From Candidatus Omnitrophota bacterium (GTDB lineage: Bacteria; Omnitrophota; Gorgyraeia; Duberdicusellales; 4484-171), in NCBI GenBank assembly GCA_043823745.1, contig JBDRAN010000044.1, positions 853 through 64,852 of the forward strand: DNA of 64,000 nt, in the 5' to 3' direction. Both the position numbers and the translations under genes were made by a program. Below are positions 3,286-13,373 of this stretch, piece by piece. Every line of letters starts with the position of its first letter. Within the stretch, counting starts at the first letter, position 1. The notes under the pieces were generated by a model that worked only from the letters and a program-made list of their open reading frames with translations, was not told where the DNA came from and did not search any database.

Positions 3286-4200
3286 TTAGGTGAGCCAGTA
3301 ACCGAGCTCTTGCAGGATGCGAGGTTTGTTTTGCCAATCACTCATAACTTCAACCCAGATATCAAGATAGACTTTTCTTCCGATGATCTTTTCGATACGC
3401 GGCCGAGCCCGCGAACCAATCTCTTTTAAAATAGCGCCTTTGGTGCCCACGATTATTTTCTTCTGAGAAGTCCTGTTAACATACACCACCACCTTGATGT
3501 AGGTAAGCGCTTTTTTCTCCCGTATCTCTTCAACCTCAACCGCCAATGAGTGCGGAAGTTCTTTGCTTAAATGCGTGAATAACTGCTCGCGTACCGCGTC
3601 AGCCACGCGAAACTTAAGCGGAAAATCGGTTGTTGTTTGGGCATCATAAAACGCGGGATTTTCGGGCAAATGCGCAAGGATTACTTTGGTTAGCTCATCA
3701 ACATTTTTTCCCGACTTTGCACAAGTCGGAAGATACGCAACCAAAAGATCTTCAGCAACCCCTTTTTGCGCCAGTAGACTTTTCCAGGCGCTGATATAAT
3801 CAGGCAAGAACTTCCCGCCTAAGTCCATTTTATTAAGCACCATAATAACCTTAATACTCTGGGAACTGAGGAAATTCATCACATCCTGCTCTTCCCGGCC
3901 CAGGCACCGGGAAACATCAGCGACATATAAGAGCAGATCGCAACCATCGACTGATTGTTTTGCAATGGTGTTAAGATGTATGGTCAGGCTATCGCGAAAC
4001 GAGTGAATTCCCGGCGTATCCACAAAAACAATTTGCCCCTCCTCGACGTTAAGAATTCCTTTTATCTGATGACGCGTGGTTTGCGGGATAGCTGAAATGA
4101 TACTTATCCGCGAACCGACAAAGGCGTTTAAGAGCGTCGATTTACCAACATTAGGCCGACCGATAATACCGACAAACCCTGATTTGAATTTTTTTTCCAT
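3286..4200 (-). CDS. era: GTPase Era.
   Basis: G1 motif GIIGRPNVGKSTL, G3 DTPG, NKxD-like NKMD, and a C-terminal KH domain. Length 304 aa. Confidence 0.9.
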   Translation of the reverse strand: MEKKFKSGFVGIIGRPNVGKSTLLNAFVGSRISIISAIPQTTRHQIKGILNVEEGQIVFVDTPGIHSFRDSLTIHLNTIAKQSVDGCDLLLYVADVSRCLGREEQDVMNFLSSQSIKVIMVLNKMDLGGKFLPDYISAWKSLLAQKGVAEDLLVAYLPTCAKSGKNVDELTKVILAHLPENPAFYDAQTTTDFPLKFRVADAVREQLFTHLSKELPHSLAVEVEEIREKKALTYIKVVVYVNRTSQKKIIVGTKGAILKEIGSRARPRIEKIIGRKVYLDIWVEVMSDWQNKPRILQELGYWLT

Positions 4201-4345
4201 TGTTAAAACGCGAATTGCCGCGAATTTATAAACGCTAATTTTCGCGAATATAAAAACATGATTCTATCGTCCCTCGTCCCAGCGAAGCGGTCGTCCTTCA
4301 TCCCTAGTTTCTCAATCTGCAATCTGCTATCTATGCCTCAAACAC

Positions 4346-10539: not shown

Positions 10540-11697
10540 CTATAGTTTTTTAAGAAAGCGTTCGATGCGCACAATCGCCTCTTTCAGGTTATCGAACGAT
10601 GTTGCGTATGACATACGGATATAGGAATCAAATTCCCTGCCGAATGCCGCCCCCGGCACAACCGCCACTTTTTCCTCAAAGAGTAACCGTTTAGCGAATT
10701 CGAGCGAACTTATCTTGAAATTCCCAATTGACGCAAAACAGTAAAACGCTCCCTGGGGCTTACTCAGCAAGAGCCGTAAGCGATTAAGTTCCCTGACCAT
10801 AAAATCGCGCCGGCGTTTATATTCAAGGCGCATCTGGCACACTTCACGTTGGGCTTTAAGTGCCTCCGTTGCGGCAACCTGAGAAACAATCGGAGCGCAC
10901 ATCATCGAAAACGAATGGATCTTAGTCATTGCGTCGATGATTTCTTTATTGGCGCAGGCGTATCCGATACGAAAACCGGTCATAGCGTAAGACTTCGAAA
11001 ACCCATTTAGCAAAATAGTCCTCTGGCGCGCGGCTGGCGCGAGCGTAGCAAACGGCGTGGGTTTACCTGCGTAATTAAGTTCATCGTAAACCTCGTCGCT
11101 GATAACAAGGGTGCAGCTTGGAGCAAGAACCTTCCAAAGCAACGCAAGTTCTTTTGCGGTATAGGTCGTGCCGGTCGGATTAGCCGGATTATTAAAAATA
11201 ATTGCCTTGGGGTTCTCACGAAGAAGCTTTTTTAACACGCTCGGATTAATTTTAAAGCCTTCGTCCTGCCTGGTAACAAGATACAAAACTTTCCCTCCAG
11301 AAATCTCGACGAGGGCCGGATATGCGACAAAATGGGGGCTGGCGACAATAACGGTATCGCCGGGTTCAATGATTGCCCGCAGCGCCAGGTCAAGCCCTTC
11401 GCTTACCCCAACCGTAACAAGAACTTCTTCTTCCGCATCATACGAAAGTGAATACTTCTTCTCAAGAAACGCAGCAATCGCGCGGCGCAAGACGAAAAGG
11501 CCTTTGTTGGATGTATACGATGTCATACCTTCTTCGAGCGCGGTGATCGCTTTCTCCCGCGCGCGCCACGGCGTGATAAAATCAGGCTCGCCCACGCCCA
11601 GAGAGATCACATCAGGCATTCCTAAGACCAGGTCGAAGAACTGCCGTATCCCGGAAGGAGCTAATTGTTCGATATGTTTTGCAATCATAATTATCAA
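10540..11697 (-). CDS. PLP-dependent aminotransferase, class I/II (aspartate/aromatic aminotransferase-like).
   Basis: The PLP-lysine motif SKSYAMTGFRIGY and the NPANPTG motif are typical of class I aminotransferases. Confidence 0.85.
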   Translation of the reverse strand: MIIMIAKHIEQLAPSGIRQFFDLVLGMPDVISLGVGEPDFITPWRAREKAITALEEGMTSYTSNKGLFVLRRAIAAFLEKKYSLSYDAEEEVLVTVGVSEGLDLALRAIIEPGDTVIVASPHFVAYPALVEISGGKVLYLVTRQDEGFKINPSVLKKLLRENPKAIIFNNPANPTGTTYTAKELALLWKVLAPSCTLVISDEVYDELNYAGKPTPFATLAPAARQRTILLNGFSKSYAMTGFRIGYACANKEIIDAMTKIHSFSMMCAPIVSQVAATEALKAQREVCQMRLEYKRRRDFMVRELNRLRLLLSKPQGAFYCFASIGNFKISSLEFAKRLLFEEKVAVVPGAAFGREFDSYIRMSYATSFDNLKEAIVRIERFLKKL

Positions 11698-11823
11698 TAT
11701 TGGTAAGCTGCACGCTACAGGCTACAAGCTACATGCTTTTAGATTTTAAAACCTTGGTCTTGAGGCCCACGGTTTGTAGCTTATGGCTTTGGCTTGCGGC
11801 TTTCGCTACTGGAAGCGAAACCG

Positions 11824-11839
11824 TGCCCCTCTGGGCAAG
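11824..11839. repeat. Left copy of a perfect 16-bp inverted repeat (tgcccctctgggcaag) flanking lrp.
   Basis: An exact reverse complement sits at 12360-12375. A third related copy, ggccctctggcc, is at 11852-11863. Confidence 0.8.
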
Positions 11840-11866
11840 ACGCCAAACCACGGCCCTCTGGCCTGG

Positions 11867-12349
11867 CTAATACGTAATCGCCAAACGGCTGTCCTTTTCC
11901 TTTTCCGCTAAGATAACGCCGTCTTCCTTGTATTTCTTTAACATAAAATGCGTTACCGCGCCTTTCACTGAACTTAACGGTGCTAACTTCTCGGCAACGA
12001 AGCTTGCCACGGTATGAATATCCTTGCCCTCAACCAACAGAAGCAAATCGTATGTTCCCGACAACAGGTAACAACTGGTAACTTCCGGGAATTTATAGAT
12101 ACGTTGGGCCACATGGTCGAAACCAACGTCCTTCTGGGGGCTTACCCGCACCTCAATAAGCGCAACCACGCTGTTGCCGCTTTTGAGCTTTTCCTTATTA
12201 ATAACCGTTTTATACTTAACGATGATACCTTTCTTTTCGTATGCCTTAATTTCTTTTTCGATATCCTTTTTATTTTTTCCAGTTAATTTTGCAAGATCCT
12301 CAAGTGATACACGCGCGTTAGATTCCAAAATTTCTAGCATATCATCCAT
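11867..12349 (-). CDS. lrp: Lrp/AsnC family transcriptional regulator. The start is revised to the internal ATG.
   Basis: N-terminal HTH (MDDMLEILESNARVSLEDLAKLTG) plus a C-terminal RAM domain. A GGAGG RBS lies 7 nt upstream of the ATG at 12349. The longer ORF N-terminus (MPLWARRII) is just the translated inverted repeat and RBS. Confidence 0.85.
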   Translation of the reverse strand: MDDMLEILESNARVSLEDLAKLTGKNKKDIEKEIKAYEKKGIIVKYKTVINKEKLKSGNSVVALIEVRVSPQKDVGFDHVAQRIYKFPEVTSCYLLSGTYDLLLLVEGKDIHTVASFVAEKLAPLSSVKGAVTHFMLKKYKEDGVILAEKEKDSRLAITY

Positions 12350-12359
12350 AATAATCCTC

Positions 12360-12375
12360 CTTGCCCAGAGGGGCA
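12360..12375. repeat. Right copy of the 16-bp inverted repeat (cttgcccagaggggca). It overlaps the lrp RBS and 5' UTR.
   Basis: Exact reverse complement of 11824-11839. Confidence 0.8.
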
Positions 12376-12423
12376 ATACCGACGAAATACCATGAAGCGC
12401 CGGGTATAGCGCAGAAGCTTACA

Positions 12424-12473
12424 CACCTTGCCTATCCTATAAGGCAAGGTGCCGGCCGTTCCAATGCGGCCGG
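12424..12473. terminator. Two tandem perfect hairpins downstream of the exonuclease gene, i.e. upstream of lrp.
   Basis: caccttgcc-tatcctataa-ggcaaggtg is a 9-bp stem. ccggccg-ttccaatg-cggccgg is a 7-bp stem. No clear U-run follows, so the role is uncertain (terminator or regulatory). Confidence 0.3.
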
Positions 12474-12554
12474 GTATCGCGATATCTCATCGATAACCTT
12501 TCGAAACTATCCTCATTGTAAATAACAAACACCTTCTTGTAAAGAACAAACGCG

Positions 12555-13373
12555 TTAGGCGATTTCAATATCGAAAATACGGTTAATATTGATACGCCGG
12601 CTTTCGACTCCGGCGCCTTGATACCAAAGATAAAAGCTGTTGCGCTCCTGAAAAAAAATAAGCGGCCGTATCTTTTCGGTGCGCATCACATTTTCATCCG
12701 CAAAGTAACGAATCTTTAAATATATCTCTTTACTCATTGCCTCCTTAATCGCCACGATCTTAGGCTCCTCTTTCGAGCGAAACACCGTGTTATTGACCCC
12801 AAAAAGCGACACATAATCATCCGCCATCGTAAGATTACGCTCACGCAGCATATCCCGTAACTTCAGGAAAACCTGAAACGTAATCTGCGCATCGCTTATG
12901 GCGCGGTGAAAACCGCCTGCGGTATCAATGCCAAAAAATCGTGCTGCTGATTCAAGTTTATAACGCGTAAGCTTGACTGTCGTACGCGCCATGGAAAGAA
13001 TATCCATAGCCGGAAATTCAACCGCCACGCGGTTTTCACGCCAGGCTTGATGTTTAATAAAGCCTAAGTCGAACTCAGCGTTGTAAGCGCACACAATAGA
13101 ATCCTGCAAAAAATCCTGTACACCGTCAAAGACATCCCGAAAAGAAGGAGCGCTTTTAACATCCTGATCGGATATCTTATGAATCAGGTGCGCCTGCGGT
13201 GGAATACTTTTACCTGGATTAACGAGTGTCTGGAATTGTTTGACAATCGTATCCCCGCGGGTTCTCAGCGCTCCAATTTCGCAAATTGCGTCGCCCTCAA
13301 CAACATCAAGTCCCGTTGTCTCAAGATCAAGAAACACTAAATCAATATCGTCAATCGCACGCTTTAGATTCAT
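12555..13373 (-). CDS. DnaQ-like 3'-5' exonuclease (DEDDh family) with a ~100-aa C-terminal extension.
   Basis: Exo I motif VFLDLETTGLD is present. The Exo III region has H...D (GFHRAISDAQ). Confidence 0.75.
   Translation of the reverse strand: MNLKRAIDDIDLVFLDLETTGLDVVEGDAICEIGALRTRGDTIVKQFQTLVNPGKSIPPQAHLIHKISDQDVKSAPSFRDVFDGVQDFLQDSIVCAYNAEFDLGFIKHQAWRENRVAVEFPAMDILSMARTTVKLTRYKLESAARFFGIDTAGGFHRAISDAQITFQVFLKLRDMLRERNLTMADDYVSLFGVNNTVFRSKEEPKIVAIKEAMSKEIYLKIRYFADENVMRTEKIRPLIFFQERNSFYLWYQGAGVESRRININRIFDIEIA

Follow-up and report, generated by a model that had tools for sequence, protein, structure and literature searches.

In a 64-kb stretch of DNA from an uncultivated Omnitrophota bacterium (hereafter the window), a gene of the Lrp/AsnC family (lrp) lies on the minus strand and is bracketed by a perfect inverted repeat of 16 nucleotides (nt). 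The left copy, TGCCCCTCTGGGCAAG, is at 11824-11839 on the plus strand, and its exact reverse complement is at 12360-12375, so that the two copies are 520 nt apart. The repeat had been described in an earlier note on this DNA, and its coordinates were confirmed by reading the sequence, by a pattern search, and by a repeat finder; the placement of the left copy 27 nt beyond the lrp stop codon was confirmed as well. Relative to the lrp mRNA, we call the copy next to the ribosome-binding site (RBS) the 5' arm and the copy beyond the stop codon the 3' arm (Table 1).

Either arm on its own is a small palindrome (TGCCC-N4-GGGCA). Local folding of the RNA predicts a 6-bp stem-loop for the 5' arm together with U12376 (UUGCCC-CUCU-GGGCAA, 12361-12376) and a 5-bp stem-loop for the 3' arm (UGCCC-AGAG-GGGCA, 11824-11837). 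A near-copy of the motif, GGCCCTCTGGCC, is located at 11852-11863 and could pair with 8 nt of the 5' arm. The core 8-mer, CCCTCTGG, occurs three times in 64 kb, and every occurrence is at the lrp locus (the expectation from shuffled sequences is 0.82, and three or more occurrences were seen in 5 of 100 shuffles). Downstream of lrp, the near-copy and the 3' arm are the heads of two tandem 27-nt units. Each unit has one AGAG-loop hairpin and, after it, GGUUU. These units are the lineage-specific portion of the spacer between lrp and the next gene, which encodes an aminotransferase, and one of them (unit B) is unique in the window. The block of identity between the two arms has sharp edges: the flanking 45 nt and 27 nt are unrelated, and a comparison of the flanks found no similarity extending past the 16-mer.

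The repeat is a real copy, and chance is not the explanation, because it is unique in the window, because G/C-rich 16-mers are rarely expected to repeat, and because nothing comparable arises by shuffling. It is the only perfect inverted repeat of at least 16 nt, with arms within 1.5 kb of each other, anywhere in the window. Some such repeat was present in 13 of 150 random windows (first-order Markov sequences with the same dinucleotide make-up; the composition of these simulated repeats was not recorded). For a 16-mer with at least 11 G/C, we calculate that about 5e-4 are expected per window. The longest exact inverted match between the two spacers that flank lrp is 16 nt, versus a mean of 7.7 nt and a maximum of 10 nt for shuffled spacers. 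The earlier claim that such a 16-mer is improbable by chance in 64 kb is thus borne out.

Both arms are probably in non-coding RNA of one transcript, because a conserved promoter lies upstream of lrp and no terminator-like site is predicted between the two arms. No promoter is predicted in the lrp-aminotransferase spacer. The right copy was said to overlap the RBS. It does overlap the extended AAGGAGG by 3-4 bases, but the RBS itself is left uncovered, as the arm ends in the first G of GGAGG (12356-12360).

In thermodynamic models, the long-range duplex between the arms is favoured over local structure. The 16-mer duplex is predicted at -34.6 kcal/mol, versus -7.6 kcal/mol for each local hairpin. 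When we folded an 821-nt transcript, the minimum-energy fold included the long-range helix, at -265.1 kcal/mol versus -257.5 kcal/mol if the local hairpins were enforced, and the long-range pairs had probabilities of 0.78-1.0. The same model gives the RBS core a probability of being unpaired of about 0.5 with the 3' arm, versus 0.16-0.21 without it. If the 3' arm is left out, the CCUCU of the 5' arm pairs with GGAGG at a probability of 0.83 in one context. The earlier note had proposed that the 5' and 3' ends of the message pair and thereby occlude the RBS. The pairing part of this proposal is physically plausible, as a helix of 16-17 bp is favoured in the folds, but the RBS is predicted to be more open with the 3' arm present, and the pairing is not conserved. 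The direction of any effect on translation (masking or unmasking of the RBS) is ambiguous in these models and is not predictable from the sequence.

A separate observation is that the 5' arm's loop, CCUCU, is similar to an anti-Shine-Dalgarno sequence and could form a masking hairpin, CCUCU-GGGCAA-GGAGG (12356-12371), and a terminator scan also flagged this site.

To compare the locus across relatives, we write W for this window's locus, L0xx or L2xx for orthologous loci, and P000x for relatives from the protein search. A contig from GCA_018827245.1 is 100% identical to this locus over 3860 nt. We found 80 orthologous loci, all of them in metagenome-assembled genomes (MAGs) of Candidatus Omnitrophota or in MAGs labelled Planctomycetia, and the protein search added more. 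The latter include P0002, whose Lrp is 97% identical (Logan contig L082), and several others at 83-86%. The lrp coding DNA of L082 is very similar to the window's, and most of the differences leave the protein unchanged. In the L082 leader, the -10 region and the last 60 nt are kept, and TGCCCTTCTGGGCG is found at the place homologous to the 5' arm, with 3 of 16 positions changed. The flanks of this hairpin are identical to the window from cgtcggtatt to gaggattattATG. The lrp-aminotransferase spacer of L082 is wholly unrelated to ours: it contains a hairpin built of GTCAAnn units and has no complement of the upstream hairpin.

From this comparison, the 5' arm is ancestral, because L082 has a homologous hairpin with three substitutions. 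The 3' arm is part of sequence that was replaced since the lineages of the window and L082 split, because the L082 spacer is entirely unrelated. The repeat is missing from all of about 85 orthologous Omnitrophota loci. The sequence GCCCCTCTGGGC is absent from all 84 related loci, and none of the relatives P0003-P0007 has the motif. A search for exact-match brackets across the orthologues returned W, L017, and L050 only. By RNAduplex with shuffled controls, the pairing is clear in W only, and the duplexes of L059 and L084 are gappy; a comparison with RNAduplex over long windows was too noisy to be used. Local alignment of the DNA flanking lrp ranked L017 and W at the top, and the matches in L053 and L023 are inside the coding sequence. 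Between lrp and the next open reading frame (ORF) of at least 150 amino acids there are fewer than 40 nt in 48 of the 84 loci, so in these loci there is no room for a 3' arm. Taken across the orthologues, the feature looks like a species-level peculiarity rather than a conserved device.

Two candidates from these comparisons were rejected. We considered CCCTCTGG at L019:3523-3530, L043:3524-3531, and L047:3531-3538 as a relative of the repeat, but these are the Pro-Ser-Gly codons of the APSGIR motif at the N-terminus of the aminotransferase. Such matches downstream of lrp are a trap in motif searches. We also considered that a stable hairpin before the RBS might be a general feature of lrp leaders, but the median z is -0.27 and only a few lineages have one.

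Table 1. Features of the lrp locus and of related loci. Positions are in the window unless a locus handle is given.
Feature	Position	Strand	Remarks
lrp coding sequence, Lrp/AsnC family, 160 amino acids	11867..12349	-	ATG at 12349; TAG stop at 11867-11869
Shine-Dalgarno core GGAGG	12356..12360	-	6 nt ahead of the ATG; equal spacing in orthologues
Structured 5' leader, ~157 nt	12350..12507	-	Fold z = -3.6
Promoter-like TTTACA-17-TACAAT	12515..12543	-	Recurs ahead of lrp in L002, L004, L010, L021, L033
5' arm, mRNA sense UGCCCCUCUGGGCAAG	12360..12375	-	Followed directly by GAGGAUUAUUAUG
3' arm, mRNA sense CUUGCCCAGAGGGGCA	11824..11839	-	
Third near-copy, mRNA sense GGCC-AGAG-GGCC	11852..11863	-	Small stem-loop; loop and closing pairs as in the 3' arm
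Two tandem 27-nt units	11812..11861 (11812-11834 + 11839-11861)	-	78% identical
Stem-loop GGUUUCGCU-UCCAGU-AGCGAAAGCC	11798..11822	-	Immediately 3' of the 3' arm
Heptamer-periodic part of spacer, GTAGCnn + AAGCCnn units	11700..11790	-	Tandem Repeats Finder array at 11705-11737
Class I/II aminotransferase, downstream partner of lrp	10540..11688	-	Gene pair conserved; closest NCBIfam PRK07682
Recurrent hairpin module in other Omnitrophota	L017:2928-2995, L068:2930-2996, L043:2926-2995, L078:2925-2992, L080, L084, L077 (+2681 and -2640), L052 (-842), L017 (-3544)		

The lrp product matches the Pfam family AsnC_trans_reg. Its match to HTH_24 is below threshold (20.2 versus a cut-off of 21.9 bits) despite a highly conserved helix-turn-helix region, which is almost invariant across the orthologues. 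Upstream of lrp is a gene for an RNase_T-type exonuclease (12555-13373). We presume that the arrangement of lrp and the aminotransferase gene recalls alaR-alaT of B. subtilis. In this lineage, the ATG of the aminotransferase gene is not preceded by a recognisable Shine-Dalgarno sequence (ttgataattATG), unlike that of lrp with its strong GGAGG; L082, L002, and L004 are alike in this.

Two extra strong hairpins (~12420-12470) make the lrp leader about 80 nt longer than its counterpart in L082. The promoter's -10 region is kept in L082, whose contig begins there. In the extra part of the leader (12390-12490), we noticed the hairpins CCGGCCG..CGGCCGG and CACCTTGCC..GGCAAGGTG, as well as a direct repeat, GCCGGGTAT(A/C)GCG, at 12399-12411 and 12469-12481. 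The CCUUGCC of the second of these hairpins could pair with the GGCAAGG that adjoins the RBS.

The conserved gene order bears on the earlier suggestion that lrp is carried by a small mobile cassette, with the arms as its terminal inverted repeats. A single gene between perfect inverted repeats of 16 bp is what such a cassette would look like. However, the order of lrp and the aminotransferase gene is syntenic in more than 80 Omnitrophota genomes without the repeat, and lrp is directly upstream of the aminotransferase gene in the orthologous loci that we inspected in detail, so synteny contradicts an insertion of lrp. The upstream neighbours (RNase_T, YjbQ, and tRNA_bind) are alike in W and in L083, which also lacks the repeat. 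There is no target-site duplication: the outer flanks are gaaaccg/ and /ataccga, with no direct repeat adjoining the arms. We found no transposase or recombinase among 25 neighbouring proteins (within ~12 kb), no break in composition, and no second copy in the sequences searched. Also, the right arm would separate lrp from its conserved promoter. We give a mobile cassette almost no weight.

The same geometry would suit an invertible segment, in which inversion of the 520-bp stretch with lrp by a site-specific recombinase turns lrp off with respect to its promoter. The perfect repeat encloses a segment of ~0.5 kb, the promoter is outside it while the RBS and lrp are inside, and the geometry in L017 is alike (see below). 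But we scanned 25 proteins, reaching ~12 kb to each side, and none is a recombinase; the two assemblies that contain this locus are identical in sequence and orientation; and the repeat is not conserved in relatives. Inversion is very improbable.

The high conservation of the helix-turn-helix region bears on another earlier suggestion, that the palindromes are operators. If so, TGCCC-N4-GGGCA would be a DNA binding site for Lrp or for another dimeric regulator, and it would serve autoregulation or looping. Lrp-family proteins commonly autoregulate and bind multiple sites, and there are three palindromic sites around this regulator gene. Yet with a nearly invariant helix-turn-helix, the palindrome before the RBS differs completely in L002 (GTTTCCCGATG..CATCGGGAAAC) and in L004 (TTTTTCTGAC..GTCAGGAAAAA), many other orthologues have no palindrome before the RBS, and L082 lacks the downstream sites. 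The upstream site is ~130-150 nt downstream of the conserved promoter and predicted start, and no promoter is predicted in the spacer. The sites described for the Lrp family are AT-rich and 13-15 bp long, while the half-sites here are GC-rich with a 4-nt spacer. Finally, a site for a dimer would not require the asymmetric loop CTCT in all three copies. We consider operators distinctly improbable.

In Omnitrophota, the non-coding DNA around lrp is a hot spot for species-specific hairpins. Species-specific hairpins are found in the lrp leaders and spacers of L002-L006, L050, L082-L085, L207, and L209. In L017, lrp is bracketed by an unrelated and imperfect inverted repeat of ~80 nt (2906-2988 and 3482-3561; local alignment z = 20.8; duplex -97 kcal/mol). 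The 5' arm of this repeat stops right at the edge of GAGGGAGG, the RBS, and its 3' arm starts within the stop codon. This bracket consists of two inverted copies of a hairpin module, and it is beside two direct copies of a 111-nt element with terminal inverted repeats of 16-18 nt. We checked the L017 bracket for covariation: L206, the one close relative, matches it at 100%, and the Lrp relatives that come after it are at ~80%.

Two other loci have the same hairpin on both sides of lrp in direct orientation. In L207, one heptamer-built hairpin is in both the lrp leader and the spacer before the aminotransferase (156-222 and 738-806; an alignment of ~67 nt with few mismatches). In L050, a heptamer hairpin is at 2822-2878 and at 3482-3538 (57 nt at 74%). 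These direct copies suggest either a separate hairpin copy ahead of the start of each cistron or an exchange of sequence between the two spacers.

The module in L017 recurs directly before the RBS of lrp and of other genes in several Omnitrophota (Table 1). It consists of a GC-rich hairpin; GG-TTCAATTC; a long species-variable hairpin; and GTGCTCATTGAAGGAGG. Within it, TTCAAT pairs with ATTGAA and GCAC pairs with GTGC. Of its 19 pairs, 13 show compensatory changes, and 94.7% of cells are paired, with very few G-U pairs (no shuffle out of 500 attains this pairing, versus 30-40% in slid controls). The module is absent from this window, and a scan of seven related loci at gathering thresholds gave no Rfam match. 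It may be a new leader RNA or a palindromic element that acts at the level of DNA.

Other hairpins are built from tandem 7-nt units. We noticed intergenic sequences of this kind with the units TCAGCnn, CACGTnn, TAAGTTn, GTCAAnn, CACCAGn, and GTAGCnn, in which a long hairpin is formed by the two arrays of the sequence. In the window, heptamer arrays are at 11700-11790 and at 4260-4340, and the former matches heptamer hairpins of the same spacer in other Omnitrophota. Arrays are also in the spacers or leaders of L002, L003, L004, L005, L050, L082, L083, L084, L085, L207, and L209. The architecture is common and the sequence is species-specific. With a strict threshold, there are 6 arrays at lag 7, versus 0-1 at lags 4-6 and 8-10. 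An Rfam scan of 11000-13200, with E-values up to 5, gave no match, and this includes the spacer of W with its heptamer array. The arrays resemble the heptamer direct repeats that were reported in Beggiatoaceae and cyanobacteria (PMC4679880). Near the second array of the window, we also noticed a 24-nt tandem repeat, AAAACGCGAATTGCCGCGAATATA (2.2 copies, 4205-4257), in the 146-nt spacer between genes for an Era-like GTPase and an M20 peptidase.

Given these dispersed hairpins, the arms might themselves belong to a low-copy palindromic element, similar to a repetitive extragenic palindromic (REP) sequence or a miniature inverted-repeat transposable element (MITE), which by chance is in both of the spacers that flank lrp, in opposite orientations. 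The arms are small GC-rich non-coding palindromes, the two tandem copies in the downstream spacer look like a REP cluster, L017, L050, and L207 each have their own species-specific hairpin element on both sides of lrp, and the element in L017 belongs to a module that also precedes other genes, in other species. However, no further copy of the 16-mer (with up to 3 mismatches), no other GCCC-N4-GGGC, and no other 27-nt unit is present in the 64-kb window (~60 spacers). This also answers the earlier concern that the motif might be a common REP element, as far as the window goes. None of the 84 related loci has a match, the identical block is just 16 nt long, and its flanks are unrelated. No RAYT-type (REP-associated tyrosine) transposase is among the 25 proteins scanned near the locus. 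A scan of public metagenomes for the 16-mer gave at least 120 single hits, unrelated and with no conservation of the flanks, which is what we would expect from a chance background; as the Lrp of this species is absent from the source of the Joint Genome Institute (JGI), this is weak evidence where this genome is concerned. Overall, we consider a dispersed element improbable.

Our tentative preference, held with a little less than even confidence, is that the repeat is a recent and lineage-specific inverted copy of the RBS-adjacent stem-loop and that, as a 5'/3' clamp of the lrp message, it affects expression to some degree. The copy would have arisen in a recent short-patch event, such as template switching or conversion between two GC-rich hairpins, and would have landed in a spacer that, in Omnitrophota, shows very fast turnover of hairpin-forming sequences. 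In the joint mRNA of lrp and the aminotransferase gene, the arms would form a helix of 16-17 bp that closes the lrp cistron from its RBS to 27 nt beyond its stop codon, and the complementary loops CUCU and AGAG would aid nucleation. This helix would compete with the two local hairpins and with the alternative masking hairpin in which CCUCU pairs with GGAGG. It would only be possible once the whole gene has been transcribed, so it would then alter the translation of Lrp or create a double-stranded target for RNase III. A 17-bp helix adjoining the RBS could still hinder the 30S subunit. The outcome would be that the output of Lrp is uncoupled from that of the aminotransferase, as in icaR of S. 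aureus (see below).

Several points weigh against this proposal. Neither covariation nor conservation of the pairing was found, as L082 has the 5' hairpin only and no 3' arm. Among ~80 other orthologues, no complementarity between leader and spacer exceeds chance, except for the unrelated repeat of L017. The helix covers GGAGG only marginally, with the first G inside it and a G-U pair at the second. Folding of 800-nt mRNAs ignores ribosomes and the kinetics of co-transcriptional folding. A weak terminator may be present at the first AGAG hairpin, and that there is one transcript is itself a prediction. Within this genome, the search for copies covered the 64-kb window. A neutral event in the very recent past would explain a perfect match with sharp edges no less well than selection would. 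Also, where other species have hairpin elements common to both flanks of lrp, these resemble members of repeat families, and this speaks more for a mutational origin than for a conserved mechanism.

These points lead to the alternative that the repeat is a neutral by-product: a recent mutational accident in a hairpin-rich, fast-evolving spacer, with no measurable effect on expression. The relative whose Lrp is 97% identical lacks the repeat and has an entirely different spacer, and across Omnitrophota the spacer is hypervariable and is often too short to hold an arm. Young duplications look like perfect, sharp-edged blocks, and the RBS core is outside the helix. On the other hand, a GC-rich complement of 16 bp, on one transcript and in untranslated regions, should be paired for some of the time at least. 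One arm adjoins the RBS, which by our estimate would be true of ~10-15% of positions in the 157-nt leader. The 8-nt core is intact in the diverged third copy, and L017 has an independent bracketing repeat. We consider the neutral explanation somewhat unlikely.

A stronger version of the clamp takes the L017 repeat as a second case. On at least two independent occasions in Omnitrophota (the 16-mer and the 80-nt pair in L017), a helix that closes lrp would have evolved, both of them ending exactly at the 5' edge of the RBS, and these would be selected, species-specific clamps that time or limit the translation of Lrp or direct RNase III to excise the lrp cistron from the message of the aminotransferase. 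The 3' arm would then be an anti-anti-Shine-Dalgarno sequence that releases GGAGG from pairing with the CCUCU in the 5' arm, but only once the gene is transcribed in full. We consider this quite unlikely.

For the preferred clamp, the nearest known system appears, by analogy, to be icaR of S. aureus. There, the message's 3'UTR (3' untranslated region) pairs with the ribosome-binding region, which blocks initiation and makes a substrate for RNase III (PMC3868564). This interaction is a species-specific one, which S. epidermidis and S. capitis lack; its complementarity is not maintained beyond S. aureus and its nearest species (PMC7049690). Since a validated pairing is species-specific, the lack of conservation at lrp weakens the argument for a function without doing away with it. 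The likeness extends to several features: both are regulator genes, in both a sequence after the stop codon is complementary to the RBS region (on one mRNA in icaR and on one probable mRNA in lrp), RNase III could act on a duplex of the predicted length, and the interaction is found in one species and is absent from close relatives with diverged 3' regions. But the UCCCC of icaR pairs with the Shine-Dalgarno bases themselves, whereas the lrp helix stops at the first 1-2 of them and the core is predicted to be more open. The 3' arm of lrp is in the intercistronic spacer of an operon rather than in a terminal 3'UTR, and the lrp pairing is known from predictions alone.

A second case of pairing between 5' and 3' untranslated regions is hbs of B. 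subtilis, in which the pairing hinders cleavage of a monocistronic mRNA by RNase Y (PMC5737220). In hbs, an intramolecular contact between the ends of the mRNA changes the access of a ribonuclease, and a contact between ends is also predicted for lrp. In hbs the message is monocistronic and it is RNase Y that is hindered; for lrp, any effect on decay is hypothetical. In hok mRNA and in the fold-back inhibition of IS10, a distant segment pairs with the translation-initiation region of the same RNA and the message is closed. There, the helix lies directly over the initiation region and is conserved within each family, whereas the coverage in lrp is marginal and is not conserved.

At the level of DNA, the arms are like REP sequences, bacterial interspersed mosaic elements (BIMEs), and MITEs in being small GC-rich intergenic palindromes in both orientations and in tandem, and related Omnitrophota loci do carry dispersed hairpin modules beside lrp. 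They differ in number, as only three copies are present in 64 kb and all of them are at lrp, and in size, as the perfect block has 16 nt; also, we found no family in the related loci or the metagenomes. Quasipalindrome or template-switch mutagenesis yields short, perfect, sharp-edged inverted copies that are templated by a nearby hairpin. It is usually described over tens of bases, not 520 bp; we nevertheless propose it as the likely origin.

More broadly, the lrp loci of Omnitrophota are a hot spot for species-specific hairpin elements, which include a structurally conserved RBS-adjacent hairpin with many compensatory changes as well as heptamer-built hairpins, neither of which matched an Rfam family in the scans that we made. 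If the repeat is neutral, then it is a warning that the turnover of hairpins can leave behind, as a by-product, a perfect and statistically convincing inverted repeat next to an RBS. If the clamp does have a function, then it would be one of very few controls in bacteria that rely on pairing between the 5' and 3' regions within one mRNA. No earlier case would be from an uncultivated phylum, and this one would be located in an operon spacer instead of a terminal 3'UTR. It would also agree with the idea that species-specific regulation is created by 3' regions that evolve fast (PMC7049690).

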